The notes under the pieces are model-generated. The model saw only the letters and a program-made list of their open reading frames with translations. It did not search any database and was not told the origin of the DNA. A DNA stretch of 64,000 nt from Escherichia phage SME50. The stretch lies in sequence record MT887289.1, one strand, 5' to 3'. Of this stretch, positions 664 to 42,947 are shown piece after piece. Within the stretch, counting starts at the first letter, position 1, and every line of letters begins with the position of its first letter. A program made the translations under genes and the position numbers.

Positions 664-1863
664 ATGAACAAAGTACAGATTATTAAAAAGAACGGCTCAC
701 TTGAAGAACCTGATATCAAAAAAGTTTTAGCAGCAGTAACTAAGTCAGCTAACAGAGTTGGGTATAAAGAACTCCCACCAGATGTTACCCAAGCTCTTGA
801 GTCAGCATTTATGAGGATTCTGGTAAAGTCCACTAAGCAGAATAATTTGCTCATCTCGGTAAACGATATTCACAGTATTGTTGAAGGTGCTTTGGCAGAA
901 GTCAATCACGAGATTTATGAGTCTTACTCAACATACAGAAATTACCGTAAAGAGGTTGCTCAAAATTGGGATGAGCTTTACCAAAAGACTAAAGACACAC
1001 TCTTCTTAGGTGACCGTGAAAACGCTAACTTTGACAGTAGTTTAATTTCTACAAAAGGCTCAATTATTCGTGGTTACCTGACTAAAGAAATCTTTAAACA
1101 GTACCATTTAACACCAGAGGAACTTGAAGCCATTGAAAAAGGGTTTATCTACATCCATGACTTAAGAGACCTAATTTTTGGTGGGATTAACTGTTGCCTG
1201 TTCGACATTGGTAAAGTACTGAAAGGTGGCTTTGAAATGTCTGGCATCGAATACTGTGAACCAAAGTCTGTACTGTCAGCCTTACAAGTTATCGGTGATG
1301 TAGTTCTTTCAGCAACTGCACAGCAATTTGGTGGATTTACTTTAGCAGAGATTGATAAGGTGCTTGTACCGTATGCTAAGAAGTCTCTACGCTATCATGC
1401 TGAGAAAGCAGCATCTTACGGTATTCCTAAAGAACATTACCATAATTATGTCATGGAGCAGCTACAGATTGAATTAACTCAAGGTTTCCAGTCACTAGAG
1501 ATGAAGCTAAATACTGTACCTTGCAGCCGTGGTGATTTCGCATTCACAACTTTAACATTTGGTTTACTTGACTCAGACATGTCTAATGAAGACAACCGAC
1601 TACAATACATGATTGCAAACACCATTCTTGATGTTCGCATGAATGGACAAGGTAAGAGCAAGAAGCCTGTTGTATTCCCTAAACTGGTTTATATTCATGA
1701 CCAGAAGAGACACGATGAGAATATCTGTCAAGGTCAACTGTACAGTAAAGCTATTGAGTGTTGCTCTAAAGCAATGTATCCAGATTTCTTAAGCGTATCT
1801 GGTCATGGTGCTGTAGCAGAGGCTTTTGAGCGTTCTGGCAAGGTCATTTCACCGATGGGTTAA
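664..1863 (+). CDS. nrdD: anaerobic ribonucleoside-triphosphate reductase, N-terminal portion (exon 1 or upstream fragment)
   Basis: 399-aa ORF with ATP-cone-like N-terminus (VQIIKKNGSLEEPDIKKV); the glycyl-radical C-terminal part is a separate downstream ORF. Confidence 0.8.
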   Translation: MNKVQIIKKNGSLEEPDIKKVLAAVTKSANRVGYKELPPDVTQALESAFMRILVKSTKQNNLLISVNDIHSIVEGALAEVNHEIYESYSTYRNYRKEVAQNWDELYQKTKDTLFLGDRENANFDSSLISTKGSIIRGYLTKEIFKQYHLTPEELEAIEKGFIYIHDLRDLIFGGINCCLFDIGKVLKGGFEMSGIEYCEPKSVLSALQVIGDVVLSATAQQFGGFTLAEIDKVLVPYAKKSLRYHAEKAASYGIPKEHYHNYVMEQLQIELTQGFQSLEMKLNTVPCSRGDFAFTTLTFGLLDSDMSNEDNRLQYMIANTILDVRMNGQGKSKKPVVFPKLVYIHDQKRHDENICQGQLYSKAIECCSKAMYPDFLSVSGHGAVAEAFERSGKVISPMG

Positions 1864-2640
1864 CAAGCTCTATAGCTCATCTAAAACGTGCCTAAACAGG
1901 GAAACTCTACAGGTGTAGACAATCCTGTGCTAAATGATGTACGATGTAAGAAACTATATAAAATAGGAGTATTACATGCCAAATTATCATGTTACTGAGG
2001 ACGGAAGAGTCTTTAGGAAAAATGGTGTAGAACTTACGCAGTGGAAATCCAACACTGGTTATATGAAAGTAAGGTTTTATGGAAGGAAGAATCGTGACAT
2101 GTATGTCCATAGGTTAGTTGCTGAAAAGTATGTACCTAACCCTAACAATCTTCCAATTGTAAAACACAAAGATGATAACAAACTGAACAACCATGCTTCT
2201 AACTTAGAATGGGGAACTCATTCTGAGAATGTTAAAGAAGGCTATGAGAATGGTTGCTACAAGTTTTGTAAGCGTTCATATGCTGTGAAGGCTACACATA
2301 AAGTGACAAAAGAAGTTATTGTTGCTAAGTCAATACGAGAGTTATCTAATGTACTTGGGTATAATCGCAAGACTATCTCTTCAATATTGAAGGGTGTAAA
2401 AGAGTATAATAACTTTGAACATGATTTTGAGTACATTTAAATGCCGAACGACTAACCGTGATGAATGTAGCGGTGTAGGGTCAAGCGACTCGAAATGGTA
2501 CGCTACTTAGAAATAAGTAGAAGATATAGTCTGGACTTACTGGTGACAGTAAGCAGCTTGAATAAAGCGGGGTAAGCGTAGCGAACTTACCTGAACAACA
2601 AGTGTAGAGCGTTTTTATCACCATATCTTAATGAGGATGG
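1864..2640 (+). mobile_element. intervening sequence in nrdD carrying an HNH endonuclease ORF (putative group I intron or free-standing homing-endonuclease insertion); 3' boundary approximate
   Basis: About 0.8 kb separates two NrdD halves in the same orientation; contains HNH ORF 1976-2440; NrdD-like frame is open from 2582. Confidence 0.45.
1976..2440 (+). CDS. HNH homing endonuclease (AP2-like C-terminal region)
   Basis: 154-aa ORF with His/Asn-rich HNH-type motif (HKDDNKLNNHASNLEWGTHSEN); located inside nrdD. Confidence 0.75.
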   Translation: MPNYHVTEDGRVFRKNGVELTQWKSNTGYMKVRFYGRKNRDMYVHRLVAEKYVPNPNNLPIVKHKDDNKLNNHASNLEWGTHSENVKEGYENGCYKFCKRSYAVKATHKVTKEVIVAKSIRELSNVLGYNRKTISSILKGVKEYNNFEHDFEYI

Positions 2641-2683: not shown

Positions 2684-3550
2684 TTGAACTTGCCTATGAT
2701 TTACCAGTATTCTAAAGAGAATGGTTTAGATTTCTGGAAAGAGCTTGATAAGTACCTAGAGATGATTCGCAGCTTCCACAAGAAACGCTACGAAATGATT
2801 GCTAATATGCCAGCAAGTTCTAACCCTCTTGCATTCACACAAGGTGGTCTGTACAAAGGGACTAAGAAACCTACTGATAAGGTTGGTTGGGATATTGTGA
2901 AGTCTTTCACAGCTTCTTTTGGGGTTACTGCTCTTGATGAGTTGTCGGTTCTTGCTGAGGGTAAACGACTCCATGAAGTTGGAAGCTATAGTTTTGCATA
3001 CGATGTTCTGGCATACATTAACATGAAAACTGAGGAGTTTAAAAATGAAGATGGCTTCTTATATGCCGTCTATGGTACTCCAGCAGAATCACTTTGCGGG
3101 ACTCAGCTAAAACAGTTCAGAGATATGTTTGGCGTTATCAAAGGTGTTTCTGATAAGGAATACTTTACAAACAGTTTCCATATGAATGTTGCAGCGGATA
3201 TCTCACCATTTGAGAAGCAGGACTTAGAAGAACCATTCTTCCATATCTGTAGAGGCGGCAGAATCCAGTATGTGAGGGTAGCTAACCCAGAAAACTTACC
3301 AGCACTTAAAAGTTGTATTACAAGAGGCATGTTGAAGGGTTTTTATCAGGGACTTAACTTTGACTTAGCAATCTGTGAACATTGTGGTAACAGACCAAAG
3401 GCTGATGTTGAAGAATGTGAGGTTTGCCATTCACATGACATCTCTGTGATTAACAGGGTGTGTGGTTATCTTGGATGGACTAAGATTAAAGGTGAATCAC
3501 GAATGAACGATGCAAAAATTGCTGAGATTCGTGACAGGGTTTCTATGTAA
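2684..3550 (+). CDS. nrdD: anaerobic ribonucleotide reductase, C-terminal glycyl-radical portion (true exon start probably upstream, about 2600-2640)
   Basis: Zn-ribbon CEHCGNRP...CEVCHSHD and glycyl radical motif RVCGYLGW near the C-terminus; track ORF begins at a TTG. Confidence 0.8.
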   Translation: MNLPMIYQYSKENGLDFWKELDKYLEMIRSFHKKRYEMIANMPASSNPLAFTQGGLYKGTKKPTDKVGWDIVKSFTASFGVTALDELSVLAEGKRLHEVGSYSFAYDVLAYINMKTEEFKNEDGFLYAVYGTPAESLCGTQLKQFRDMFGVIKGVSDKEYFTNSFHMNVAADISPFEKQDLEEPFFHICRGGRIQYVRVANPENLPALKSCITRGMLKGFYQGLNFDLAICEHCGNRPKADVEECEVCHSHDISVINRVCGYLGWTKIKGESRMNDAKIAEIRDRVSM

Positions 3551-5384: not shown

Positions 5385-5705
5385 ATGAGCAAAGTTTATA
5401 ACACTCGTAAATTACAGATTTTCGTACTGTGCCAGTTTATGGCTAAAGAGTATAACTGCTACTATTGTGGTACAGGGTTCATCAGTGACAATGACGGTTC
5501 ATATCTACCATTCAAAGAGGCTGTAAAACTCTTCAATGAAGAGAAAAGCTCTAAGAAAGATATTGAAAAGGTTAAGCTAACCTACAGCAAGAAAGATAAG
5601 AAGATTATCTGCCTAGATAACTTTGTGAAAGTTACTGGAGAAGCAAAAGAGTTTATGGATGAGAGTGAAATCTCATTCACAAGCATCTTGAAAGTAGCTC
5701 AGTAA
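5385..5705 (+). CDS. hypothetical protein
   Basis: 106-aa ORF starting 3 nt after the previous stop. Confidence 0.5.
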   Translation: MSKVYNTRKLQIFVLCQFMAKEYNCYYCGTGFISDNDGSYLPFKEAVKLFNEEKSSKKDIEKVKLTYSKKDKKIICLDNFVKVTGEAKEFMDESEISFTSILKVAQ

Positions 5706-5717
5706 ACAGATACTATA

Positions 5718-5746
5718 AGGGGACTGTAAAGGTTCCCTTTTTTATT
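5718..5746 (+). terminator. rho-independent terminator
   Basis: Hairpin AGGGGACTGTAAAGGTTCCCT followed by TTTTTTATTTT. Confidence 0.45.
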
Positions 5747-5757
5747 TTGGAGATAAT

Positions 5758-6273
5758 ATGTATCTGTCAAATCTGAAACGTTCTGCTGCAATGTCAGTTC
5801 TAAGACTCAGCTTCGAGGAACGTCAAGAGTTCATTGACTCCCACCAATACGACCCTTCTAACTCAAATCACATGATTCTCTGGAATCGTGATAGTACCCG
5901 TGAAAGAGCACTATTCCGATATTACCCACACTACACTGTAGATAACTTGTATGAATGTTTTGTTGTGAAGAACACCATTGCAGTTCTCAATAAACTTTGC
6001 AGATACACAGGTAGTCAATCCTTCACATTAGGTCACCACAAGCCTGTTACAAAAGGTGGTGAACATCACTGCGCAAACTGGTTTATCCAAACTAAAGCTG
6101 ATAACCAGAAGCAAGGAGATAGCCTTCTAAGCACTCCTAAGATGACCTATGAAGAGCAAGAGAAATATATCAAAAATAATATGCCAGATGTGCTTGACAA
6201 CAACTATACAGATTTGGCAATATCTCTCCTGTTGAAGTTCGAGACAGTTTATAGGGCAACTTACAATGGCTAA
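5758..6273 (+). CDS. hypothetical protein
   Basis: 171-aa ORF. Confidence 0.5.
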   Translation: MYLSNLKRSAAMSVLRLSFEERQEFIDSHQYDPSNSNHMILWNRDSTRERALFRYYPHYTVDNLYECFVVKNTIAVLNKLCRYTGSQSFTLGHHKPVTKGGEHHCANWFIQTKADNQKQGDSLLSTPKMTYEEQEKYIKNNMPDVLDNNYTDLAISLLLKFETVYRATYNG

Positions 6274-6544
6274 AGAGAAGTGGGAGATTTTACCACTAGT
6301 CAGTGAGGGTGGTAATGGTTGTGAAATGTATATGATACGAGGTCATGTTCCAGAACCAATTGCACTTGAGATGGTAAACAATTTTACAGATGGCTCTTAC
6401 AAAGATTTAGGAGAACCAACTGTCAAGCAACAATGGGTTAAACCTGTACCAGACAGCACAGGTAACTGTAGTGTACTTTATCACGTTGTAGACCCTGCAA
6501 AATGCAAATCTGCAATGGCAGTAACAAACGTAACTTTTAATTGA
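6266..6544 (+). CDS. hypothetical protein
   Basis: 92-aa ORF overlapping neighbours by a few nt. Confidence 0.5.
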   Translation: MAKEKWEILPLVSEGGNGCEMYMIRGHVPEPIALEMVNNFTDGSYKDLGEPTVKQQWVKPVPDSTGNCSVLYHVVDPAKCKSAMAVTNVTFN

Positions 6545-6555
6545 GAGAGAAAACT

Positions 6556-7437
6556 ATGAAAACATCTATCCGTGTTACAGTTCATTCACCAACTAAAGGG
6601 ACTCATGAAGAAGAGTTTAACATCATCCAATTCCCTTCTGGTGAGATTGGTGGACACTTTTCACCAGAGTTTGTTGACTTCACTGCTTATGCAGCATCAT
6701 CTATCAACAATGTGATTATGATTGTAAAAGGTTATGATAAAGATACATTGTTTGCTGTGGCACTTGCTAAAGAGGCGGTGGACAACTTAGTACCTCATAA
6801 GTTTGCTATGAAGACTGTCATCTTTTACTATTTGCCAAATGCACGTTACGACCGTCACATGTTTAAAGGTGATGCAGCAGCTTTGAAAGTGTTTGCACAA
6901 CAGGTTAATGCAATGGGTTTCGATGCAGTCTGTGCAGTTGACTCTCACAGTTATGTACCAGATAACCTGTTTAACTGCTTCCAGAGTATCCCCCAAAAGG
7001 AGATTGCAGTCCACTATGCGAATGACCCACTGGTTGATTACTTAGTAGCCCCAGATGCAGGTGCTGCTAAGAAGATTGCAGAGACCGCTAAAGAGGTGGA
7101 TAAACCATACATCACAATGTCTAAAGTGCGTAACCTTAAGACTGGTGAGATTACCGGTATGCGAATCCTCGATGATGTTGATTTGACAGATAAAACTGTC
7201 ATGATTCTGGACGACATCTGTGATGGAGGTCGTACCTTCATAGAGGCAGCTAAACATCTCCGTGAAGCAGGTGCAAAACGTGTGGAACTCTATGTAACAC
7301 ATGGTATCTTCTCTAAAGATGTTGAAAACCTTCTTGACAACGGTATTGACCACATCTACACTACAAACTCTTTAGGGGAAGCTAAAGACCGTGGATTAAC
7401 ACATTATAGTCAAGTTACTGTAGCAAATTTGGATTAG
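6556..7437 (+). CDS. ribose-phosphate pyrophosphokinase (Prs)-family enzyme; candidate ADPR-pyrophosphate synthetase (Adps) of a NARP1-type NAD+ reconstitution pathway
   Basis: PRPP-binding-loop-like motif VMILDDICDGGRTF followed by AKRV...THGIFS, as in Prs enzymes; ATG at 6556 (track ORF begins at TTG 6541); sits next to a NAMPT-like gene. Confidence 0.7.
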   Translation: MKTSIRVTVHSPTKGTHEEEFNIIQFPSGEIGGHFSPEFVDFTAYAASSINNVIMIVKGYDKDTLFAVALAKEAVDNLVPHKFAMKTVIFYYLPNARYDRHMFKGDAAALKVFAQQVNAMGFDAVCAVDSHSYVPDNLFNCFQSIPQKEIAVHYANDPLVDYLVAPDAGAAKKIAETAKEVDKPYITMSKVRNLKTGEITGMRILDDVDLTDKTVMILDDICDGGRTFIEAAKHLREAGAKRVELYVTHGIFSKDVENLLDNGIDHIYTTNSLGEAKDRGLTHYSQVTVANLD

Positions 7438-7445
7438 GTATTAAA

Positions 7446-7937
7446 ATGGATAAGGGTTACTTCGAAAAATACCTAAGATACGAACCAGAGACAGGTTTAC
7501 TAATTTGGAAAGTAACCCTTTGCAATACCGCTATTGCTGGCAATGTTGCTGGCACAAGGTCTAAGAAGGGTTATATCCAAGTTCAGATAAATAAGAAGAG
7601 GTACTATGCACATAATATTGCATGGATTATGTCTGGAGGTGAGATACCAAGTGGATATGAGATAGACCACATAGACCTTGATAAAACTAATAATAAGTTG
7701 GAGAACTTAAGACTTAGCACAAAGTCACAAAATCAGAGGAATAGAGGCATACACAAGAATAATAAAACTGGTGTGAAGGGTGTAAGTTTTTGTAAACAAA
7801 CAGGTCTTTACAAAGCAAGAGTCATGCTTTACCATAAAGAATACTTTTGTGGAAGATTTAAAACGGTAGAAGAAGCAAAAGAAGCTGTAATTAAAAAGCG
7901 AATAGAACTTCATGGTGAGTTTGCAAGACATAACTAA
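7446..7937 (+). CDS. HNH homing endonuclease
   Basis: 163-aa ORF with HNH-type motif (YYAHNIAW...EIDHIDLDKTNNKLENL) and AP2-like C-terminus; inserted between the two NAD+ genes. Confidence 0.7.
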   Translation: MDKGYFEKYLRYEPETGLLIWKVTLCNTAIAGNVAGTRSKKGYIQVQINKKRYYAHNIAWIMSGGEIPSGYEIDHIDLDKTNNKLENLRLSTKSQNQRNRGIHKNNKTGVKGVSFCKQTGLYKARVMLYHKEYFCGRFKTVEEAKEAVIKKRIELHGEFARHN

Positions 7938-7951
7938 GAGAGAGATAAAAT

Positions 7952-9733
7952 ATGAGTAATTCACTTTACGCAGTACCAGCAGGTCTTAATGCAGATGCTT
8001 ACAAGGCATCACATATATATCAGTATCCAGATGCTACACAGTATCTTATGTTGAACCTGACACCACGTAGTGACAAATGGTTTAACAGCCCCTTAGCAAT
8101 TGACGGTGTAGTGGCTTTTGGTATTCAACGTTTTGTTAAAGATTACCTGATAGACCACTGGAACGCCACCTTCTTCGAACGTGACAAAAAAGAAGCAATT
8201 GATGAAATCTTAGAAGTCATGAACGGCGTTCTGGGTAAAGATGCTATTGGTCGAGAACATTGGGAAGCACTCCACGACTTAGGTTATCTACCAGTTGAAG
8301 TCTACGCTGTAGAAGAAGGTACAGTTGTCCCTATGCGTGTGCCAATGATTGTCTTCCAGAACACTGTTTCAGGTTTCCATTGGGTAGCGGGGTATCTGGA
8401 AGATGCTTTCTCTGCTGAGATTTGGAAGGCTTGTACCATTGCAACTATTGCATTGCACTACAAACGTATCTGTAAGAAGTGGTCTGACCTTACTTGTGAC
8501 AACGACTTGCATTTGCCTTATCAGTGCCATGATTTTGCTATGCGTGGTATGTCCGGCTTTACTGATGACGCATTTAACGCTGTAGGCCACTTAACCAGCT
8601 TTAAAGGGACTGATAGCTTCCCTGCTGTATATACAGCTAAACGCATCTACGGTCAGTCCTACCCAATCTCTGATATTGGTAGCTCTGTACCAGCCACTGA
8701 ACACTCTGTAATGTGTGCAAACATTGCTTGGGAAGGTGGTAATGAGTTGATTGAAGAAGAAAGACGCTTTAAAGGTGAGTTACAAACCTTCCGTCGATTC
8801 TTAACAGAGACTTACCCAACTGGTATTGCAAGTGTTGTTTCAGATACTTATAATTTCTGGAGAACTGTATCAGTCATATTGCCAGAACTCCGTAAAGAGA
8901 TTATGGAACGTGATGGAAAACTGGTAATTCGTCCTGACTCTGGAGACCCTGTACATATTGTCACAGGCTATAAAGCAATCCACTTAGAGTGTGCTAAAAA
9001 GGCTTATTACGAACACCTAAGCAAGCTGGAAGCCAGCGACACAATGTTGAATGCTGTTCTGAACATGAAGCTTGAAAACATCAACTATGGTATTGCTGGG
9101 TGGCTACTGTCAGAAGGCTACGAAATGGTTGTTGACAGAGAAGACTTTGAAGTTGCTGATACAGTGCTGTTGAAAAATGCTTACATGGTTGGTTCTGCAA
9201 ACGTTGTAACACGTCCTGTAGCAGAGATTGATGGTGCTATTAAGACCCTGTATAACATCTTTGGAGGGACTATCAACTCTAAAGGTTTTAAGGTACTGGA
9301 TGAGCACATTGGCCTTATTTATGGTGACTCTATCACGTTGGAACGTGCAAACGAAATCCTGAAACGTTTGTATGAAATGGGTTTTGCAAGCTCTAACGTA
9401 GTGTTTGGTGTAGGTTCTTATACTTACCAGTACATGACTCGTGACACCTTTGCATTTGCTGTCAAAGCAACTCTTGCAAGTATTGGTGGTAAAGAGATTA
9501 TGCTTGCAAAAGACCCTAAAACAGATAGCGGTGTTAAGAAGTCTGCTTTTGGTGGTGTAGCACCCATGTGGGATGGTGATAAGCTGAAAGCTGTAGATGG
9601 CTATGGATTCCAGAGCTTTGCAGATGTGCTTGAACATCCAGCTTGTGCTTTACGTTTAGTCTTTAGTGACTCTGAGCAGTTCGGTTACACAACTCTTGGT
9701 GATATTCGAAATAATATTGACAAGCAACTTTAA
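7952..9733 (+). CDS. nicotinamide phosphoribosyltransferase-family enzyme (NadV/NAMPT-like); candidate nicotinamide ADPR transferase (Namat)
   Basis: 593-aa ORF; N-terminus YAVPAGLNADAYKASHIYQYP is characteristic of NAMPT-family enzymes; paired with the Prs-like gene. Confidence 0.75.
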   Translation: MSNSLYAVPAGLNADAYKASHIYQYPDATQYLMLNLTPRSDKWFNSPLAIDGVVAFGIQRFVKDYLIDHWNATFFERDKKEAIDEILEVMNGVLGKDAIGREHWEALHDLGYLPVEVYAVEEGTVVPMRVPMIVFQNTVSGFHWVAGYLEDAFSAEIWKACTIATIALHYKRICKKWSDLTCDNDLHLPYQCHDFAMRGMSGFTDDAFNAVGHLTSFKGTDSFPAVYTAKRIYGQSYPISDIGSSVPATEHSVMCANIAWEGGNELIEEERRFKGELQTFRRFLTETYPTGIASVVSDTYNFWRTVSVILPELRKEIMERDGKLVIRPDSGDPVHIVTGYKAIHLECAKKAYYEHLSKLEASDTMLNAVLNMKLENINYGIAGWLLSEGYEMVVDREDFEVADTVLLKNAYMVGSANVVTRPVAEIDGAIKTLYNIFGGTINSKGFKVLDEHIGLIYGDSITLERANEILKRLYEMGFASSNVVFGVGSYTYQYMTRDTFAFAVKATLASIGGKEIMLAKDPKTDSGVKKSAFGGVAPMWDGDKLKAVDGYGFQSFADVLEHPACALRLVFSDSEQFGYTTLGDIRNNIDKQL

Positions 9734-9746
9734 AAGTATATGATAA

Positions 9747-9770
9747 GAGGCTCCTACGGGAGCCTTTTTA
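9747..9770 (+). terminator. rho-independent terminator
   Basis: GGCTCC-TACG-GGAGCC hairpin followed by TTTTT. Confidence 0.6.
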
Positions 9771-37107: not shown

Positions 37108-37184
37108 CTCTGTTTAGCTCAGCTTGGTAGAGCGTTCCGTTTGGGGCGGTAAGGCCGGAGGTTCAAGTCCTCCAACAGAGACCA
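37108..37184 (+). tRNA. tRNA-Pro(TGG)
   Basis: Manual fold: acceptor CTCTGTT/AACAGAG, D-arm GCTC...GAGC, anticodon loop TTTGGGG, T-arm GGAGG-TTCAAGT-CCTCC, CCA encoded. Confidence 0.7.
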
Positions 37185-37191
37185 AATTAAT

Positions 37192-37269
37192 GTTCCAGTA
37201 GACAAAACGGTAAAGTCACCACTCTTTCAAAGTGGATATTTGAGGGTTCAAATCCCTTCTGGAACGCCA
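37192..37269 (+). tRNA. tRNA-Glu(TTC)
   Basis: Acceptor GTTCCAG/CTGGAAC, anticodon stem CCACT/AGTGG with loop CTTTCAA, T-loop TTCAAAT, CCA encoded. Confidence 0.7.
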
Positions 37270-37276
37270 GTTTTGA

Positions 37277-37349
37277 CAGAAGACCAATTGCAGCAAACTT
37301 AATCTTATTCATCTGACACGAAATCGGACAAAGAAGATATTTGGTCTGG
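37277..37349 (+). ncRNA. conserved inverted-repeat element A (CAGAAGACCAA ... TTGGTCTGG)
   Basis: 7-bp closing helix; conserved 5' block CAGAAGACCnnnTTGCAGCAAA; immediately follows a tRNA 3' end. Confidence 0.35.
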
Positions 37350-37360
37350 TCATTAAGAAT

Positions 37361-37437
37361 TGCGGGTATAGAGAAAGGGCGTCTCACATGTCTCATTAGC
37401 ATGGTATCGGCAGGTTCGACTCCTGCACCCGCCTCCA
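37361..37437 (+). tRNA. tRNA-Met(CAT), possibly initiator-type
   Basis: Anticodon stem CATGT/GCATG with loop CTCATTA; T-arm GCAGG-TTCGACT-CCTGC; position 1-72 unpaired (T/C); CCA encoded. Confidence 0.6.
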
Positions 37438-37443
37438 ATTTTG

Positions 37444-37503
37444 CAGAAGACCGTATTCAGCAACAAAATACTTTTTGCGGATAAAAGAAAAAACACGGTC
37501 TGG
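37444..37503 (+). ncRNA. conserved inverted-repeat element B (CAGAAGACCGT ... ACGGTCTGG)
   Basis: 7-bp closing helix around an A/T-rich loop; shares the 5' block with elements A, C, D. Confidence 0.35.
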
Positions 37504-37514
37504 CAATGTATTAA

Positions 37515-37591
37515 GGTTAGGAAGCACATAAGGTATGTGCGGTCGCCTGTTAAGCGAATGGCACAGGGTTCGAATCCCTGACTAACCGCAA
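37515..37591 (+). tRNA. tRNA-Asn(GTT)
   Basis: D-arm GCAC...GTGC, anticodon loop CTGTTAA, T-arm CAGGG-TTCGAAT-CCCTG; 3' end reads CAA not CCA. Confidence 0.6.
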
Positions 37592-37600
37592 AATTTAAAT

Positions 37601-37688
37601 GTGTCGTTATCCCGTAGATGGTAGCGGTGGGGACTGTAAATCCCTTGTCATTGAGACTCGGTAGGTTCGACTCCTACACGGCACACCA
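37601..37688 (+). tRNA. tRNA-Tyr(GTA), class II
   Basis: Acceptor GTGTCGT/ACGGCAC, anticodon stem GGGGA/TCCCT with loop CTGTAAA, long variable arm, T-arm GTAGG-TTCGACT-CCTAC, CCA encoded. Confidence 0.7.
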
Positions 37689-37710
37689 ACACTTAGCGAG
37701 ATACTTAGTT

Positions 37711-38139
37711 ATGAGAGATGAAGTATACAAATCACAACTTGGTATGAGTTTAGGAACTGCACAAAACAGACTAGTAAAAGATTTGCTATTTGATTTTATA
37801 TGTAAAACAAATCAAAATAGATGTTTTCAGTGCGGAAAGGAAATGACTAGGGATGATTTCTCTATCGAGCATAAGATTCCGTGGAGACATAGTGAAAATG
37901 CAAAAGAGCTTTTCTTTTCACTAGATAACATTTCTTATAGTCATCTTAAATGCAACATGAAAGCAGCAAGACCAGCACAGATAAGTGAAAGAAAACCTAA
38001 AACAATTAAACACGGAACTGCGTATAGCTATTACAAAGGCTGTAGATGCGATGCGTGTAGGCTGGCTAAGAATGCTGAGAGTAGAAGAAACTATAGTCCA
38101 GAAAGACGTAGGAAGAAGTATATAAGAAATGGTACATAG
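37711..38139 (+). CDS. HNH homing endonuclease inside the tRNA array
   Basis: CFQCGK...EHKIPW...N...H HNH motif; start moved to ATG 37711 because the track ORF start (37618) overlaps tRNA-Tyr. Confidence 0.65.
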   Translation: MRDEVYKSQLGMSLGTAQNRLVKDLLFDFICKTNQNRCFQCGKEMTRDDFSIEHKIPWRHSENAKELFFSLDNISYSHLKCNMKAARPAQISERKPKTIKHGTAYSYYKGCRCDACRLAKNAESRRNYSPERRRKKYIRNGT

Positions 38140-38144
38140 GTTTT

Positions 38145-38220
38145 GGGGTATTAGTTTAGACGGGTAAAATACTGGATTGTCTCTCCTGAGCCGCGAGTTC
38201 GATTCTCGCATACCTCGCCA
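38145..38220 (+). tRNA. tRNA-Asp(GTC)
   Basis: Acceptor GGGGTAT/ATACCTC, anticodon loop TTGTCTC (one stem mismatch), T-arm GCGAG-TTCGATT-CTCGC, CCA encoded. Confidence 0.55.
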
Positions 38221-38281
38221 ATTTTGAGAGGGCTATTTAGCCCCTCCCTTAAAGAGTTCTTACGAGTATTCTTTAAAGGAG

Positions 38282-38355
38282 CAGAAGACCAAATTCAGCA
38301 AGTTACTTAAAATTTCAAGCCAATTTAATTTTGAAAAATTTAAAACTTGGTCTGG
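38282..38355 (+). ncRNA. conserved inverted-repeat element C (CAGAAGACCAA ... TTGGTCTGG)
   Basis: Same family as A/B/D; A/T-rich interior. Confidence 0.35.
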
Positions 38356-38368
38356 CTCAACAAATTTA

Positions 38369-38500
38369 CAGAAGACCGTTTACAGCAAAACTTAAACAAT
38401 CTATTTCTCCGGTAAAGAAAAGGCGAAGGTTCGATTCCTTCACTCGGCAGATGTCGAGTTGGTGTAATGGTAGCACTTAAGATGATAAACAACGGTCTGG
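38369..38500 (+). ncRNA. candidate Y-RNA-like ncRNA: circularly permuted tRNA-like module closed by an 8-bp terminal helix (element D)
   Basis: Order 5'-helix, CTTAA, T-arm GAAGG-TTCGATT-CCTTC, acceptor-3' ACTCGGC, acceptor-5' GTCGAGT, D-arm GTGT-AATGGTA-GCAC, TTAAG, 3'-helix; the two acceptor halves are complementary to each other. Confidence 0.45.
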
Positions 38501-38507
38501 TAATTGT

Positions 38508-38639
38508 CTTTGTAGATAAGTTATTAAGCTTACCTGTGAGTATGCGACCACAAAGGGTGAAAGGGTAAATTCTAGATTTAAACCCAACAAGGCACATCGC
38601 TACAGACCTTAAGCAAGTCTGGGTAGCTTATCTACAAAG
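38508..38639 (+). ncRNA. structured element bounded by a perfect 13-bp inverted repeat (CTTTGTAGATAAG ... CTTATCTACAAAG)
   Basis: 13-bp perfect IR encloses about 105 nt including an internal CAGACC...GTCTGG hairpin; no ORF. Confidence 0.35.
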
Positions 38640-38649
38640 ATAATTTAAT

Positions 38650-38725
38650 GGAAGTGTAGCAGAATGGTGATGCGGCAGACTTTTAATCTGACAGGCGATG
38701 GGTTCGAATCCCTCCACTTCTACCA
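38650..38725 (+). tRNA. tRNA-Lys(TTT)
   Basis: Acceptor GGAAGTG/CACTTCT, anticodon loop CTTTTAA, T-loop TTCGAAT, CCA encoded; T-stem has only 3 clean pairs. Confidence 0.55.
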
Positions 38726-38729
38726 AAAT

Positions 38730-38806
38730 GGTTCAGTCGCAGATAAGGTAATGCAGGGGTTTCATAAGCCCTATGAATGTGGGTTCGATTCCCATCTGAA
38801 CCTCCA
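38730..38806 (+). tRNA. tRNA with CAT anticodon (elongator Met or Ile2)
   Basis: Acceptor GGTTCAG/CTGAACC, anticodon stem GGGGT/GCCCT with loop TTCATAA, T-arm GTGGG-TTCGATT-CCCAT, CCA encoded. Confidence 0.6.
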
Positions 38807-38808
38807 AT

Positions 38809-38884
38809 GCTGTGAAAGCACATATGGATGTGCATTCGGCTGATAACCGAAAGGAAGAAGGTTCGAATCCTTCTCACAGTACCA
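38809..38884 (+). tRNA. tRNA-Ile(GAT)
   Basis: D-arm GCAC...GTGC, anticodon stem TTCGG/CCGAA with loop CTGATAA, T-arm GAAGG-TTCGAAT-CCTTC, CCA encoded. Confidence 0.7.
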
Positions 38885-38899
38885 ATTTCAATAAAGTTG

Positions 38900-38928
38900 T
38901 TGACATTGAGATGTGACCACTTTATAGT
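38900..38928 (+). promoter_or_regulatory. sigma70-like promoter within the tRNA array
   Basis: TTGACA - 17 nt - TATAGT. Confidence 0.55.
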
Positions 38929-39250
38929 AACTAAAATACTTCATAATATGTATAATTCAAACACCAATACATGAGCGTTAGACGTAACACAATGTGGGGA
39001 AATTTGTTGTACATATTCTGAATAGTTTTCGTTGCGTAGCGTCTATTTTGCAAATTTAAAATAAATGCAAACGACAATGTTTTTCTGGCAGTAGCTTGAT
39101 AGGCTAAACACCAGTGAGGTCTTCCAATCCCTCATCAAAGAATTTGGCGTACTCGCCCACGGTATGATTAATAAGGTGGGCAACATTCTAAAGGGTATCC
39201 CTTATGGGGCTTGGCTTAAATGCAATGAGTACCCTTTAAAATGTTAATTA

Positions 39251-39332
39251 CGGGGCGTATCTCAGCGGTCTTCTAAACCGCCGTTAACCGAGTAAGTGGA
39301 GTATGCGGGTTCGAGTCCTGCCGCCTCGACCA
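39251..39332 (+). tRNA. atypical tRNA-like gene (good acceptor/T-arm and a TCT-containing stem-loop, but no recognisable D-arm); isotype uncertain
   Basis: Acceptor CGGGGCG/CGCCTCG, T-arm GCGGG-TTCGAGT-CCTGC, CCA encoded; internal hairpin GCGGT-CTTCTAA-ACCGC. Confidence 0.35.
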
Positions 39333-39346
39333 ATTTTGGATGAAAT

Positions 39347-39695
39347 CATGAAGACTTGTATTAGGTGCAAACTTAGCAAGGATGAAAGTGATTTCTACAT
39401 GAAAGATGGTAGGAGAACTCATTCATACTGTAAAAAGTGTGTTAATGAGCAAACCATAGAAAGACAAAGAGCACTTAAACTTTCAGCTATTGAGTACAAA
39501 GGTGGTGTTTGTCAGGATTGTGGTAAAAGGTATCATCCAGCAGTGTATGACTTCCATCATTTGAATCCTTCAGAGAAAGATTTTAACATTGCTCATAGAA
39601 GAAGTCTTAAGTTCTCTCAGGAGCTTAAGAACGAACTTGACAAATGTGTTTTGCTATGTTCAAATTGCCATAGGGTAAGACATGCAAAGTATTAG
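39347..39695 (+). CDS. HNH endonuclease (zinc-finger plus HNH) inside the tRNA array
   Basis: CIRC...CKKC zinc-finger then HHLNP...CVLLCSNCHRVRH; start moved to ATG 39347 because the track ORF start overlaps the upstream tRNA-like gene. Confidence 0.65.
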
Positions 39696-39832
39696 TTAGC
39701 AGATTGCTTAGACGACCTTATCGGGTCTCCGTGTAAGGAGGTGGTCTGTATCTCATGTTTTCCAGAACATGTAAATAATCTGAGAAGGGGCTTTACAGTG
39801 TTGCGAAAATACGGTAAGCTTCGAATTATAGT

Positions 39833-39915
39833 GTGGGACGATGTTAAGACTCTAAGGCATGAGCAACGGCCTCCAAAACCGTTTCAAAGGGGTTCAACTC
39901 CTCCGTCCCATGCCA
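39833..39915 (+). tRNA. tRNA-Trp(CCA) (D-region longer than canonical)
   Basis: Acceptor GTGGGAC/GTCCCAT, anticodon loop CTCCAAA as in bacterial tRNA-Trp, T-loop TTCAACT, CCA encoded. Confidence 0.45.
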
Positions 39916-39928
39916 AAGTCTTATTAGG

Positions 39929-40016
39929 GGTAGGTAGCGGCTAATGGCAGCCAAACAGTCTTGAAAACTGTTGCCACTGTAGAGATACGGTGAGGGTTCG
40001 ACTCCTTTACTTACCG
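39929..40016 (+). tRNA. tRNA-Ser(TGA), class II
   Basis: Acceptor GGTAGGT/ACTTACC, anticodon stem ACAGT/ACTGT with loop CTTGAAA, long variable arm, T-loop TTCGACT; CCA not fully encoded. Confidence 0.6.
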
Positions 40017-40175
40017 CCTAATAAGATTTTACACCGTCCATGCTTGCTCGCATTTTCGGTTTATCCCTCGTGTATTGTCGTACACACTGATAAAGCACCT
40101 AGTAGGTGTCACGGAGAAGAGATAATATCAAGCTCTCCAAAGGTTCTAGTCACCGGATTAAACAAGACTATGCAA

Positions 40176-40195
40176 AGACCTAAATAGGTCTTTTT
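40176..40195 (+). terminator. rho-independent terminator
   Basis: AGACCT-AAAT-AGGTCT hairpin followed by TTTTT. Confidence 0.5.
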
Positions 40196-40274
40196 AGAGG
40201 GCTTCTAAGGTTATTACAGCTTGTTGTGGAACCTTGTTGCTTAGGTTCTTAGAAGTTCTCTAAAAAGATTTAAT

Positions 40275-40352
40275 GGGAGATTGACGGTAATTGGTAAACC
40301 TACCATCCTTAGAAGTTGGTGTTTGAGGGTTCGAATCCCTTGTCTCCTACCA
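40275..40352 (+). tRNA. tRNA with anticodon TAG (Leu-type anticodon) but short variable arm; identity uncertain
   Basis: Acceptor GGGAGAT/GTCTCCT, anticodon loop CTTAGAA, T-arm GAGGG-TTCGAAT-CCCTT, A73, CCA encoded. Confidence 0.45.
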
Positions 40353-40359
40353 AATTAAT

Positions 40360-40435
40360 GCAGGTGTAGCAAAATGGTTATGCGGCTGACTCTTAATCAG
40401 TAAGACGATGGGTTCAATTCCCTCCACCTGTACCA
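40360..40435 (+). tRNA. tRNA-Lys(CTT)
   Basis: Paralog of the 38650 tRNA: acceptor GCAGGTG/CACCTGT, anticodon stem GCTGA/TCAGT with loop CTCTTAA, T-loop TTCAATT, CCA encoded. Confidence 0.55.
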
Positions 40436-40439
40436 AATT

Positions 40440-40515
40440 GGGGTCATAGTTTATATGGTTAAAATTCGAGTTTTGCAAACTTGGGAACTGAGTTCAATTC
40501 TCAGTGACTCCACCA
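40440..40515 (+). tRNA. tRNA-Ala(TGC)
   Basis: Acceptor GGGGTCA/TGACTCC, anticodon loop TTTGCAA, T-arm CTGAG-TTCAATT-CTCAG, CCA encoded. Confidence 0.65.
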
Positions 40516-40521
40516 ATTAGT

Positions 40522-40596
40522 GCATCCATAGTTTAAACGGGAAAATTACAGTCTTCCAAACTGAGGTTGAGGGTTCGATTCCCTCTGGATGCTCCA
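40522..40596 (+). tRNA. tRNA-Gly(TCC)
   Basis: Acceptor GCATCCA/TGGATGC, anticodon loop CTTCCAA, T-arm GAGGG-TTCGATT-CCCTC, CCA encoded. Confidence 0.65.
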
Positions 40597-40603
40597 AATT
40601 AAT

Positions 40604-40679
40604 GCTCCTATCGTATAATTGGCTATTACGGTTGCCTTGTAAGCAACTTATCAGGGTTCGAATCCTTGTGGGAGCACCA
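40604..40679 (+). tRNA. tRNA-Thr(TGT)
   Basis: Acceptor GCTCCTA/TGGGAGC, anticodon stem GTTGC/GCAAC with loop CTTGTAA, T-arm CAGGG-TTCGAAT-CCTTG, CCA encoded. Confidence 0.7.
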
Positions 40680-40682
40680 ATT

Positions 40683-40770
40683 CAGAGGTCAAGTGAAAGA
40701 CCGCTTTGAGTCAACTGAAGACCGTAACAAATTCCACGGAGTTGAGTTAGCGGCACAACTTCAGACCTCT
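40683..40770 (+). ncRNA. inverted-repeat element E (CAGAGGTC ... GACCTCT) containing a GAAGACC block
   Basis: 7-bp closing helix and internal hairpins; immediately follows tRNA-Thr. Confidence 0.3.
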
Positions 40771-40775
40771 TTCAT

Positions 40776-40850
40776 ACTCGCTTAGTTTATATGGTAAAAC
40801 ACCACCCTTACAAGATGAAGAAAAAGGTTCAAGTCCTTTAGTGAGTACCA
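40776..40850 (+). tRNA. tRNA-Val(TAC) (weak anticodon stem)
   Basis: Acceptor ACTCGCT/AGTGAGT, D-arm GTTT...AAAC, anticodon loop CTTACAA, T-arm AAAGG-TTCAAGT-CCTTT, CCA encoded. Confidence 0.45.
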
Positions 40851-40851
40851 T

Positions 40852-40929
40852 GTTCCAGTATCCCAATTGGCAGAGGATGCAAGCTCAAACCTTGTACTAG
40901 TGACGGTTCGAATCCGTCTTGGAACACCA
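40852..40929 (+). tRNA. tRNA with anticodon CAA (Leu-type anticodon) but short variable arm; identity uncertain
   Basis: Acceptor GTTCCAG/TTGGAAC, anticodon stem GCAAG/CTTGT with loop CTCAAAC, T-arm GACGG-TTCGAAT-CCGTC, A73, CCA encoded. Confidence 0.5.
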
Positions 40930-40934
40930 ATTTT

Positions 40935-41010
40935 GCAGGATTAGTTCAAATGGATAGAGCAACAGTCTACGAAGCTGTTAATAGGGGTTCGAATCCCTTA
41001 TCCTGCGCCA
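40935..41010 (+). tRNA. tRNA-Arg(ACG)
   Basis: Acceptor GCAGGAT/ATCCTGC, D-arm GTTC...GAGC, anticodon stem ACAGT/GCTGT with loop CTACGAA, T-loop TTCGAAT, CCA encoded. Confidence 0.7.
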
Positions 41011-41029
41011 ATTTAAAGAGGCTATTTAG

Positions 41030-41587
41030 ATGAGATATTTGAAGTATGCTTCATGGATTTTCTTAGCTTTGTTAGAACCATTAGCAGCAATCTTAGCAGT
41101 TATCTTAGCACCTTTCGTAGTTCCATTTTACAGTGAGAAGAAAGGACACTTACCTTTCGGATTTAGATGGATGGAAACTTATGACAACCCGATTGATGGT
41201 GATGAAGGTCATGTCAAACGATGGGCTAAGATTAGAAAGATTGGTAAGCTCGGTGTCTATATGCAGAGAGTCGGATGGCTCTGGAGAAACAAAGCTTATA
41301 ACTTCTCCTACCATGTGTTAGGAAGAGATGTAAAAGATGTTACTAAGTGGAAAGGTAATATCAACGTAAGTTCTGACCCTGAAGATAATCAGACAGGTTA
41401 TCTCTTAATGTGGAACAGCAATGCTTGGGGATTATTCGCTTTTGTACCATCAATTAAAATCTTTGGTAAACAATTCTACTGGAGAATTTATGTTGGATGG
41501 AAACTTAAAAGTGTTGTCCCAGAAGAAAGAGCATTCTCAAGGGAAAGAGTTATGTTGGCATTCTTTATTCATCCACTAAGAAAGTAA
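41030..41587 (+). CDS. membrane protein (N-terminal TM helix) embedded in the tRNA array
   Basis: 185-aa ORF; hydrophobic N-terminus WIFLALLEPLAAILAVILAPFVVPF; Trp-rich remainder. Confidence 0.5.
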   Translation: MRYLKYASWIFLALLEPLAAILAVILAPFVVPFYSEKKGHLPFGFRWMETYDNPIDGDEGHVKRWAKIRKIGKLGVYMQRVGWLWRNKAYNFSYHVLGRDVKDVTKWKGNINVSSDPEDNQTGYLLMWNSNAWGLFAFVPSIKIFGKQFYWRIYVGWKLKSVVPEERAFSRERVMLAFFIHPLRK

Positions 41588-41595
41588 AGATTTAA

Positions 41596-41671
41596 AGGGG
41601 ATTAGTTTACAAGGTTAAAACCTCGGTCTTTGAAATCGAAGAAGTTGGTTCAATTCCAACACCCCCCGCCA
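41596..41671 (+). tRNA. tRNA-Gln(TTG)
   Basis: Anticodon stem TCGGT/ATCGA with loop CTTTGAA, T-arm GTTGG-TTCAATT-CCAAC, CCA encoded; acceptor has two mismatches. Confidence 0.5.
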
Positions 41672-41673
41672 AT

Positions 41674-41752
41674 GCTCCATTACTCCAATTGGCAGAGAGG
41701 CCAGACTTAAAATCTGTGTTATGTATCGGTTCGAATCCGATATGGAGTACCA
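41674..41752 (+). tRNA. tRNA with anticodon TAA (Leu-type anticodon) but short variable arm; identity uncertain
   Basis: Acceptor GCTCCAT/ATGGAGT, anticodon loop CTTAAAA, T-arm ATCGG-TTCGAAT-CCGAT, A73, CCA encoded. Confidence 0.5.
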
Positions 41753-41757
41753 AATTT

Positions 41758-41833
41758 AGCGGTATAGCATAACTGGCAATGCAGCAGTCTCTGAAGCTGT
41801 CTTATTAAGGTTCAAATCCTTATGCCGCTGCCA
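41758..41833 (+). tRNA. tRNA-Gln(CTG)
   Basis: Acceptor AGCGGTA/TGCCGCT, D-arm GCAT...ATGC, anticodon loop CTCTGAA, T-arm TAAGG-TTCAAAT-CCTTA, CCA encoded. Confidence 0.6.
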
Positions 41834-41864
41834 CTTCTAAGGATTCTTACGAGAGTCCTTAAAT

Positions 41865-41940
41865 GTGGCCTTATCATAAATGGTAATGACCCATGCTGTG
41901 AACATGGTCTATACGGGTTCAAATCCCGTAGGTCACCCCA
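41865..41940 (+). tRNA. tRNA-His(GTG)
   Basis: Acceptor GTGGCCT/AGGTCAC, D-arm TCAT...ATGA, anticodon stem CCATG/CATGG with loop CTGTGAA, discriminator C, CCA encoded. Confidence 0.7.
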
Positions 41941-41945
41941 ATTTA

Positions 41946-42022
41946 TAGTCCAAGTAGCTTATATGGTTAAAGCGCGTGTCTGAAAAACATGAGAAGAGGG
42001 TTCAAATCCCACTGGACTACCA
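41946..42022 (+). tRNA. tRNA-Phe(GAA)
   Basis: Acceptor TAGTCCA/TGGACTA, D-arm GCTT...AAGC, anticodon stem CGTGT/ACATG with loop CTGAAAA, T-loop TTCAAAT; 3' register ambiguous by 1 nt. Confidence 0.55.
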
Positions 42023-42038
42023 ATTTCAAAGGTGCTTA

Positions 42039-42773: not shown

Positions 42774-42774
42774 T

Positions 42775-42867
42775 GGAAGATTAACCCTAAAAGGTAAGGG
42801 AGCAGTTTGCTAAACTGCCAGTAGCTGAGAAATCGGTGTACCAGTTCAAGTCTGGTATCTTCCTCCA
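42775..42867 (+). tRNA. tRNA-Ser(GCT), class II
   Basis: Acceptor GGAAGAT/ATCTTCC, anticodon stem GCAGT/ACTGC with loop TTGCTAA, long variable arm, T-arm ACCAG-TTCAAGT-CTGGT, CCA encoded. Confidence 0.7.
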
Positions 42868-42871
42868 ATTT

Positions 42872-42947
42872 GAATCCGTGACAGAAATGGATATGTGCCT
42901 GTCTGCAAAACAGGTTTATAAGGGTTCGAGTCCCTTCGGATTCTCCA
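42872..42947 (+). tRNA. tRNA-Cys(GCA)
   Basis: Acceptor GAATCCG/CGGATTC, anticodon stem CCTGT/ACAGG with loop CTGCAAA, T-arm AAGGG-TTCGAGT-CCCTT, CCA encoded. Confidence 0.7.

Follow-up and report, generated by a model that had tools for sequence, protein, structure and literature searches.

Two genes on the plus strand of the 64-kb stretch of DNA analyzed here (the window), one for a Prs-like protein and one for a 593-residue NAMPT-like protein, are separated by an HNH endonuclease gene. The locus raises the question of whether the pair rebuilds NAD+ from ADP-ribose or serves classical nicotinamide salvage. A previous sequence-only reading had described the two genes as co-oriented and split only by the HNH gene, which the open reading frames (ORFs) and their Pfam matches confirm, and had favored NAD+ reconstitution pathway 1 (NARP1) over salvage. 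It was unaware that NARP1 in these phages is an already characterized system.

NARP1, made up of Adps and Namat, was defined in phage Bas63, where deletion of genes 79–80 abolished escape from SIR2-HerA, ADPR-PP was found in infected cells only with the wild-type phage, and the host NMN-to-NAD+ enzymes PncC and NadR were dispensable (bioRxiv 10.1101/2024.02.11.579819). The Bas63 protein purified poorly, and the biochemistry of NARP1 comes from SpbetaL1, ICP1, DyoEdafos, and Paenibacillus homologues. In the proposed mechanism, a host defense (SIR2-HerA, DSR1/2, type I Thoeris, or SEFIR) would split NAD+ into ADP-ribose and nicotinamide. Adps would move the β,γ-pyrophosphate of ATP onto the 1'' hydroxyl of ADP-ribose to give ADPR-PP, and Namat would swap the pyrophosphate of ADPR-PP for nicotinamide, giving NAD+ directly with neither an NMN intermediate nor an NMN adenylyltransferase. 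For the chemistry and the anti-defense phenotype we rely on published work on orthologues and homologues; what the present analysis itself shows is the order of the genes, their orthology to Bas63, the signatures of both families, the polymorphic presence or absence of the endonuclease gene, and purifying selection.

Gene order and transcription unit

The three ORFs come from the ORF listing of the window (Table 1). The first is open from position 6541, and its ATG at 6556 gives a protein of 293 residues, the length annotated in relatives. Only 8 nucleotides lie between the stop codon of adps and the start of the HNH gene, which is 492 nt long, and 14 between the HNH stop codon and the start of namat. 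The window belongs to the genus Felixounavirus, and 258 phage records match, most of them at 90–97% nucleotide identity.

Table 1. Features of the adps-namat locus and its flanks (window positions)
Feature	Position	Strand	Basis or remark
Terminator-like hairpin, then T-run	5717..5739	+	Consensus scan, pattern matching only
171-aa conserved protein, phrog_3500	5758..6273	+	phrog_3500, 2.4e-92; weak phrog_2214 HNH match, 1.1e-4
92-aa conserved protein, phrog_4726	6266..6544	+	PHROG match; directly 5' of adps
adps, Prs/PRPS-like, 293 aa	6556..7437	+	Orthology to Bas63 gp79, Pfam, PDB matches
HNH_3 and AP2-like homing endonuclease gene, 163 aa	7446..7937	+	Pfam, phrog_99
adps-namat spacer, namat side, with purine-rich namat ribosome-binding site GAGAGAGA	7938..7951	+	Allele alignment
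namat, NAMPT-like, 593 aa	7952..9733	+	Orthology to Bas63 gp80, Pfam, PDB matches
Namat selectivity-clamp loop (SCL), S40-D41-K42-W43	8069..8080	+	Alignment; identical to Bas63
Namat insertion domain, ~85 aa, residues ~340–427	8969..9232	+	Not in the SpbetaL1 Namat crystal structure or in ~495-aa homologues
Namat selectivity-clamp helix (SCH) signature, G488-S-Y-T-Y-Q-Y-M-T-R-D498	9413..9445	+	Family alignment
Promoter-like site	9717-9744		Consensus scan; abuts the downstream hairpin
Terminator-like hairpin, 12 nt past the namat stop codon	9745..9768	+	Consensus scan, pattern matching only

Genes 77–84 of Bas63 (JohannRWettstein, MZ501086) are syntenic with the locus. Bas63 is of the same genus and carries bas63_0079 (Adps) and bas63_0080 (Namat) at the same genomic position, with the same protein lengths of 293 and 593 residues. 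The common gene order is nrdG, small ORFs, adps, namat, small ORFs, and rIIA. Bas63 differs in that it has no endonuclease gene, contains a 45-nt spacer with the hairpin GGGGCUUGAAAGCCCC, and carries another N-terminal allele of Adps. Felix O1 (NC_005282) has the same order of adps, HNH gene, and namat as the window (ORF127-ORF128-nadV), as do 60 other records. Its HNH protein and Namat are 93 and 98% identical to those of the window, respectively, whereas its Adps is of the Bas63-type N-terminal allele (84% amino acid identity to the window Adps) and its genes are annotated as classical salvage.

The hairpin ahead of the 171-residue protein gene likely delimits, on the upstream side, the transcription unit holding the NARP1 genes, and phage Moogle has an annotated terminator at the corresponding position. 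The hairpin behind namat is likely the downstream boundary. Judging from the spacing of the genes and the pattern scans, adps, the HNH gene, and namat are most likely co-transcribed from one unit. The 171-residue protein gene lies upstream of adps in the same predicted unit and is kept in Bas63, Felix O1, and Moogle. The Pfam match of its product to DUF7167 is below the cutoff (6.5e-3), and neither a Macro nor an RyR domain was found in it with Pfam; a Pfam search of the 92-residue protein returned no family. A role linked to NARP1 was considered for the flanking small ORFs (171, 92, 111, and 58 residues) and rejected, as their PHROG matches are to families of unknown function, apart from the weak HNH-like signal in the 171-residue protein. 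An Rfam scan returned tRNAs only, with no group I intron around the split nrdD at the gathering threshold.

For all three genes dN/dS lies between 0.03 and 0.19, whether the endonuclease gene is present or absent. Purifying selection acts on adps, the HNH gene, and namat.

Signatures of Adps and Namat

The Adps ORF matches the Pfam families Pribosyltran (1.5e-11) and Pribosyl_synth (4e-10) as well as Prs structures in the PDB, with E-values down to 4e-17, and it is 80% identical to Bas63 gp79 over its full length. The PRPP-binding-loop-like motif pointed out in the sequence-only reading was located at residues 215–228 as VMILDDICDGGRTF. It contains the PP loop D219-T227 (DDICDGGRT, nt 7210-7236), the first six residues of which are the same as in ICP1 Adps, where the loop (D212-D213-I214-C215-D216...S220) serves donor ATP binding. 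The corresponding residues of E. coli Prs are DDMIDT. In an alignment with ICP1 Adps, residues R97, H131, D167, K190, and D219-D223 are conserved, and Lys190 (nt 7123-7125) aligns with the catalytic Lys185. The catalytic lysine of Adps sits on a β-hairpin (K185 in ICP1; K162 in SpbetaL1). The Adps of the window lacks the C-terminal α11-α12 module of Prs and ends about 19 residues short of the E. coli Prs C terminus (293 versus 315 residues). This module is the filament and allosteric region of Prs.

In ICP1 Adps, the aromatic residues F18 (from the neighboring protomer) and F92 stack on the adenine of ADPR. The alignment places H17 and M102 opposite them in the proteins of the window, Bas63, and Moogle, but its N-terminal part is weak and unreliable (32% identity). 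The Bas63 Adps that shares H17 and M102 belongs to the NARP1 validated by deletion. The genus contains two alleles of the Adps N-terminal domain, a minor detail that is previously unreported; the allele of the window has about 59–68% nucleotide identity to that of Bas63 over the first 300 nt. Co-conversion would make this dimorphism track the endonuclease gene, but it does not do so: each allele type is found in phages with the HNH gene and in phages lacking it. The dN/dS of adps is 0.07–0.19.

Namat matches NAPRTase (1.8e-34) and NAMPT_N (9.4e-6) in Pfam and is 97% identical to Bas63 gp80 over its full length. Its best sequence matches in the PDB are the SpbetaL1 Namat entries 9w5w and 9w5x (~1e-128). 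Superposition of an AF2 model (pLDDT 93) on 9w5x gives a TM score of 0.95, and the Namat crystal structures are the best structural neighbors of the model. The folds and the catalytic and specificity elements of SpbetaL1 Namat (PMC12774641) and ICP1 Adps (PMC13586617) recur in the window proteins, at identities of ~37–38% (structure-based) and ~32%, respectively. Ten residues of Namat (D15, Y17, F195, R198, D221, H251, R327, D329, G458, and D459) are invariant in an alignment of 43 sequences, and the equivalent core of SpbetaL1 Namat is D13, Y15, F189, R192, D215, the catalytic His, R306, D308, G360, and D361.

Two published clamp motifs bear on the choice of substrate. The SCL has Arg, Lys, or Tyr at its third position; with Lys or Tyr there, stacking falls to the residue at position four (PMC12774641). 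The window Namat has Lys at the third position, and the Trp that follows is predicted to stack on the adenine. The pattern GSX-phi1-X-phi2-X-phi3-TRD, in which the X residues are aromatic, tells Namat from Nampt (PMC12774641). The sequence GSYTYQYMTRD of the window SCH fits this pattern and is conserved across the family alignment; its phi3 residue is Met, as in Bas63, where Asn or Val is commoner. The clamp motifs and the catalytic residues of Bas63 are identical to those of the window.

In classical nicotinamide salvage, the Prs-like enzyme would make PRPP out of ribose-5-phosphate, the NAMPT-like enzyme would make NMN from it and nicotinamide, and NadR or PncC/NadD of the host would complete NAD+. 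The Pfam and PHROG labels (ribose-phosphate pyrophosphokinase and nicotinamide phosphoribosyltransferase) read this way, as do nearly all deposited annotations; HdNadV, a bona fide NadV, is the second-best structural and sequence neighbor of the window Namat, and Namat homologues still form NMN from PRPP in vitro (PMC12774641; bioRxiv 10.1101/2024.02.11.579819). However, SpbetaL1 Adps yielded no product in an assay described as a Prs test, yet converted ADPR, and Namat given both PRPP and ADPR-PP made NAD+ only (bioRxiv 10.1101/2024.02.11.579819). With the Namat-specific adenine clamp motifs present in the window protein, classical salvage as the function of the pair is quite improbable. By analogy with its homologues, this Namat may have some classical NMN-forming activity besides its part in NARP1.

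Compared with SpbetaL1 Namat, the window protein has about 15 extra residues after the catalytic His region and the insertion of about 85 residues. The insertion domain is confidently folded in the prediction, and a search for its fold returned no match. It is a minor, previously unreported detail. Other Namat lineages have also expanded the same loop, with unrelated sequences. It is conceivable, but rather unlikely, that this Ounavirinae-like insertion, as an autonomously folding unit with no detectable relative in sequence or fold, adds a function such as regulation, an interaction with Adps or some other partner, or escape from a host anti-NARP1 factor, and that the Adps alleles likewise reflect selection by host countermeasures and not neutral mosaicism.

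The HNH gene between adps and namat

The product of the middle gene matches HNH_3 in Pfam (2.7e-19) and phrog_99 (1.4e-69); an AP2 match is sub-threshold (4.9e-4; 20.8 bits against a cutoff of 33.3 bits). The gene occurs in 61 phage records from two genera, Felix O1 among them, at one site each. About 195 relatives, including Bas63, lack it and have adps and namat contiguous. A junction alignment of four alleles with and four without the endonuclease gene shows precise insertion boundaries that disrupt neither of the flanking ORFs nor the namat ribosome-binding site. Compared with Moogle, dS is 0.32 for the HNH gene and 1.19 for adps, and the HNH gene is less diverged than the genes that flank it, which speaks for horizontal movement. 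A hidden metabolic role, as a Macro phosphatase or an RyR glycosidase, was rejected because Pfam and PHROGs return HNH endonuclease families only, and Pfam detected no Macro or RyR domain in any ORF between 5758 and 10122. Among the ORFs of the window, the only paralogue candidate is a marginal match (E 0.021) to an endonuclease ORF inside nrdD.

From these matches and its distribution, the gene is read as a free-standing HNH homing endonuclease gene, a selfish mobile element and not a component of the pathway; the sequence-only reading had correctly treated it as an interruption. In T-even and Felix O1-like phages, free-standing homing endonuclease genes are similarly small HNH ORFs in the intergenic spacer between conserved genes. 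The likeness of the window gene to them lies in its presence or absence at one site and its lower divergence than the flanks, and homing is putative.

Through polar effects or decay, the insertion might have put the operon out of action, leaving adps and namat as relics in this phage. It places 514 nt of foreign sequence between the two genes where alleles without the endonuclease gene have 45 nt, and the conserved hairpin of the short spacer is gone. Against this, adps and namat are full-length ORFs, the namat ribosome-binding site is retained, and the three-gene arrangement is stable in 61 genomes of two genera. The dN/dS of namat (0.03–0.07 overall) is equally low between phages that carry the endonuclease gene (0.033 for the window against Felix O1). 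A disabled operon is thus highly improbable.

NMN adenylyltransferase and the place of the locus among NARP1 systems

The sequence-only reading had recognized no NMN adenylyltransferase in the window, and a direct search bears this out. All 334 stop-to-stop ORFs of at least 50 residues in the 64-kb window were searched by phmmer with single-sequence queries, and none was identified with E. coli NadD (best E 0.48) or NadR (1.1), while E. coli Prs as a control found the Adps ORF at 5.7e-16. There is next to no chance of a NARP2-type system, in which the partner of the NAMPT-like enzyme would be an NMN adenylyltransferase from a phage gene at another locus, with PRPP supplied by the Prs-like enzyme: such a gene could sit outside the window, which is 64 kb of a genome of about 87 kb, but besides the phmmer result, none is annotated in positions 1-62000 of the 87.1-kb Bas63 genome, the window protein carries the signatures of Namat and not those of Nampt, and 97% of Adps-clade genes in a published survey lie close beside a Namat homologue. 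In a PHROG of 547 positions, phrog_12872, the first half matches Adps and the second half Namat, a pattern that fits a fusion of the two in other phages as well as a functional link between them.

The NARP1 reading is supported by the orthology to Bas63 (80 and 97% identity, with synteny), by the published signatures of Namat and Adps, and by the phmmer search for an NMN adenylyltransferase. Very probably, this Felixounavirus locus works as a NARP1 operon; we infer the activity of the allele in this phage from its orthologues and homologues.

A third gene inside the adps-namat operon is also known from other systems. In NARP1-AP, known from Vibrio phage Gary, the gene for the Macro-domain phosphatase Adpp separates adps from namat, and RyDEP is an RyR-domain glycosidase within the NARP1 locus of DyoEdafos. 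Unlike Adpp and RyDEP, the HNH homing endonuclease would add no metabolic step. Since the locus has no Adpp phosphatase, the phage is predicted to be sensitive to aRES-type defenses, which produce ADPR-1''-phosphate.

The locus is nothing new in kind: it represents a known counter-defense pathway in the genus of its discovery. Its value lies in annotation: PRPP synthetase and nicotinamide phosphoribosyltransferase are the names that these genes still bear in nearly all Felix O1-like genomes on deposit, and such labels imply the wrong chemistry. The adps-namat pair also tolerates a homing endonuclease gene in between, and tools for finding NARP1 should therefore allow for an intervening gene.

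Orthology of the locus to the NARP1 genes of phage Bas63

The Prs-like gene adps and the NAMPT-like gene namat are separated by an HNH endonuclease gene, with gaps of 8 nt on the adps side and 14 nt on the namat side. The ORF coordinates agree with the positions assigned to the three genes in the sequence-only reading, and the families are confirmed by Pfam. Its interpretation of the pair as a NARP1 pathway is supported by orthology to Bas63 and by the family signatures of Namat and Adps.

Features of the locus and its surroundings in the window
Feature	Position	Strand	Details
nrdD ORF, first part	664-1863		
HNH_3 endonuclease ORF within nrdD	1976-2440		
nrdD ORF, second part	2684-3550		
Promoter-like site abutting terminator-like hairpin	5688-5739		pattern matches
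Terminator-like hairpin	5717-5739		pattern scan
phrog_3500 ORF	5758-6273		171 aa
adps, Prs-like ORF	6556-7437	+	293 aa from ATG at 6556; in-frame TTG upstream at 6541; Pribosyltran and Pribosyl_synth (Pfam)
Adps N-terminal domain	6556-7000		
Segment between adps and namat	7438-7951		hairpin GGGGCUUGAAAGCCCC missing
HNH ORF	7446-7937	+	163 aa; HNH_3 at 2.7e-19, AP2 below threshold (Pfam)
namat, NAMPT-like ORF	7952-9733	+	593 aa; NAPRTase at 1.8e-34, NAMPT_N (Pfam)
Promoter-like site abutting terminator-like hairpin	9717-9768		pattern matches
Promoter-like site	9717-9744		TTGACA, 16 nt, TATGAT; 11/12 matches
Terminator-like hairpin	9745-9768		pattern scan
tRNA cluster	37108-42947	+	25 genes

NARP1 is already known. 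It was discovered in phage Bas63 (JohannRWettstein), where it is encoded by genes 79-80 (Osterman et al., bioRxiv 10.1101/2024.02.11.579819). Without these genes, plating of Bas63 on SIR2-HerA falls about 20-fold; with the wild-type phage NAD+ depletion is milder, and ADPR-PP (m/z 720.010) is seen only in defence-carrying cells infected with wild-type Bas63 (10.1101/2024.02.11.579819). In the Bas63 record used for comparison (MZ501086, Felixounavirus), genes 79 and 80 occupy the same position as adps and namat, 3' of nrdG and several small ORFs and 5' of rIIA. The lengths of gp79 and gp80 exactly equal those of the window Adps and Namat, with identities of 80% (233/293 residues) and 97% (575/593 residues), respectively. 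Because place, lengths and identities all correspond, the locus is an orthologue of the NARP1 type example and more than a lookalike.

A NARP2 pathway would depend on an NMN adenylyltransferase encoded by the phage. When the 334 window ORFs were searched by phmmer with E. coli NadD and NadR, no similar ORF emerged (best E values 0.48 and 1.1), and a Prs query, used as a control, recovered adps at 5.7e-16. The 62 kb of Bas63 examined likewise carry no NMN adenylyltransferase annotation. Classical salvage from PRPP to NMN, the reading given by the GenBank annotations, is contradicted both by the Bas63 experiments and by the in vitro specificity of homologues. NARP3 (PnuC and NadR, PMC13464706) is unrelated to the adps and namat genes.

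Signatures of Adps and Namat

The key residues of ICP1 Adps are Arg-87, His-121, Asp-161, the catalytic Lys-185 and a PP loop at Asp-212–Ser-220, and the Prs alpha11-alpha12 module is lost (2026 study, PMC13586617). Their counterparts in the window Adps are Arg-97, His-131, Asp-167 and Lys-190. The motif VMILDDICDGGRTF comprises Adps residues 215-228. The DDICDG sequence is shared with ICP1 Adps, where E. coli Prs has DDMIDT, and the Prs C-terminal extension is absent. The adenine-stacking phenylalanines of ICP1 align to His-17 and Met-102 in both the window and Bas63, in a region where the alignment is weak.

Namat is distinguished from Nampt by a clamp helix, GSX-phi-X-phi-X-phi-TRD with aromatic X, and by a clamp loop with Arg, Lys or Tyr at its third position; with Lys or Tyr there, stacking falls to the fourth residue (SpbetaL1 Namat structure, PMC12774641). 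The window Namat contains the helix G488-SYTYQYM-TRD498 and the loop S40-D-K-W43, both the same in Bas63. The catalytic core (Asp-15, Tyr-17, Phe-195, Arg-198, Asp-221, His-251, Arg-327, Asp-329, Gly-458 and Asp-459) is invariant in a 43-sequence alignment. The closest PDB neighbours of an AlphaFold2 model (mean pLDDT 93) are 9w5x and 9w5w, both crystal structures of Namat (target-normalised TM 0.95), with H. ducreyi NadV and human NAMPT ranked lower.

The Ounavirinae-type Namat is longer than the crystallised SpbetaL1 enzyme and the homologues of ~495 residues by two segments, one of about 15 residues following the catalytic-His region and one of about 85 residues at positions 340-427. The latter segment is confidently predicted both in the full model and alone (pLDDT 91, pTM 0.80), and in the alignment other Namat lineages have unrelated insertions at the same loop. 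The Adps N-terminal domain occurs in Felixounavirus as two alleles with about 59-68% nucleotide identity over the first 300 nt, one in the window, MBP4696116, warpig and EC6, the other in Felix O1, Bas63 and DaR-2019b. The remainder of the locus is >90% identical, and the split is independent of the presence of the endonuclease gene. In phrog_12872 (547 positions, annotated as nicotinamide phosphoribosyltransferase), positions 48-224 match Adps and 236-534 match Namat, a profile consistent with a natural Adps-Namat fusion in other phages. The extra Namat segments, the allele dimorphism and this two-half match are not discussed in the cited NARP1 papers.

Genomic setting

Matches to the 3.4-kb region come from 258 phage records, and most are 90-97% identical in nucleotides. 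Almost all of these phages are Felix O1-like, with Escherichia, Salmonella, Shigella and Citrobacter as hosts, and the surroundings of the locus are those of Felixounavirus: nrdD and nrdG lie upstream, and rIIA and rIIB downstream according to annotation at equivalent positions in relatives. Felix O1-like phages typically carry a tRNA cluster like the one at 37.1-42.9 kb. The gene for the anaerobic ribonucleotide reductase, nrdD, is interrupted between its two ORFs by a sequence encoding another HNH_3 endonuclease, as also annotated in Bas63; Rfam detected no group I intron there at gathering threshold.

Terminator-like hairpins flank a predicted unit that also contains two small conserved ORFs without assigned function, its boundaries being putative and pattern-based. 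The promoter-like sites abutting these hairpins suggest compact terminator/promoter junctions at both ends. Upstream of adps, the phrog_3500 protein is conserved in all relatives examined and carries an HNH-like motif, GHHKPVTKGGEHHCANWFIQTKADNQKQG, with weak profile support.

The endonuclease gene between adps and namat

The third genes of known NARP1 operons encode a Macro-domain phosphatase (Adpp) or a RyR-domain glycosidase. The middle gene of the locus is neither; it encodes an HNH_3 endonuclease whose C-terminal part is AP2-like. It is present in 61 phage records, including Felix O1 and Citrobacter phage Moogle, each time as one copy per genome. About 195 relatives, Bas63 among them, have an adps-namat spacing of 45-46 nt. 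Aligning four alleles with the endonuclease gene and four without it reveals that a ~30-nt stretch with the hairpin GGGGCUUGAAAGCCCC (-11.5 kcal/mol) is replaced in endonuclease-bearing alleles, and that namat keeps its purine-rich ribosome-binding site. In relatives without the endonuclease gene, this hairpin followed by AUUUUG is conserved between adps and namat (positions 4638-4653 of L006, the Bas63 sequence used for comparison), and it could be an attenuator or processing site.

Between the window and Moogle, dS is 0.32 for the HNH gene and 1.19 for the adjacent adps, a difference that a horizontally moving element would show. The dN/dS is 0.03-0.19 in adps, the HNH gene and namat, so that all three are under purifying selection, and Namat is equally constrained between endonuclease-carrying phages (0.033, window versus Felix O1). 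These substitution patterns argue that the endonuclease insertion has not disabled the operon.
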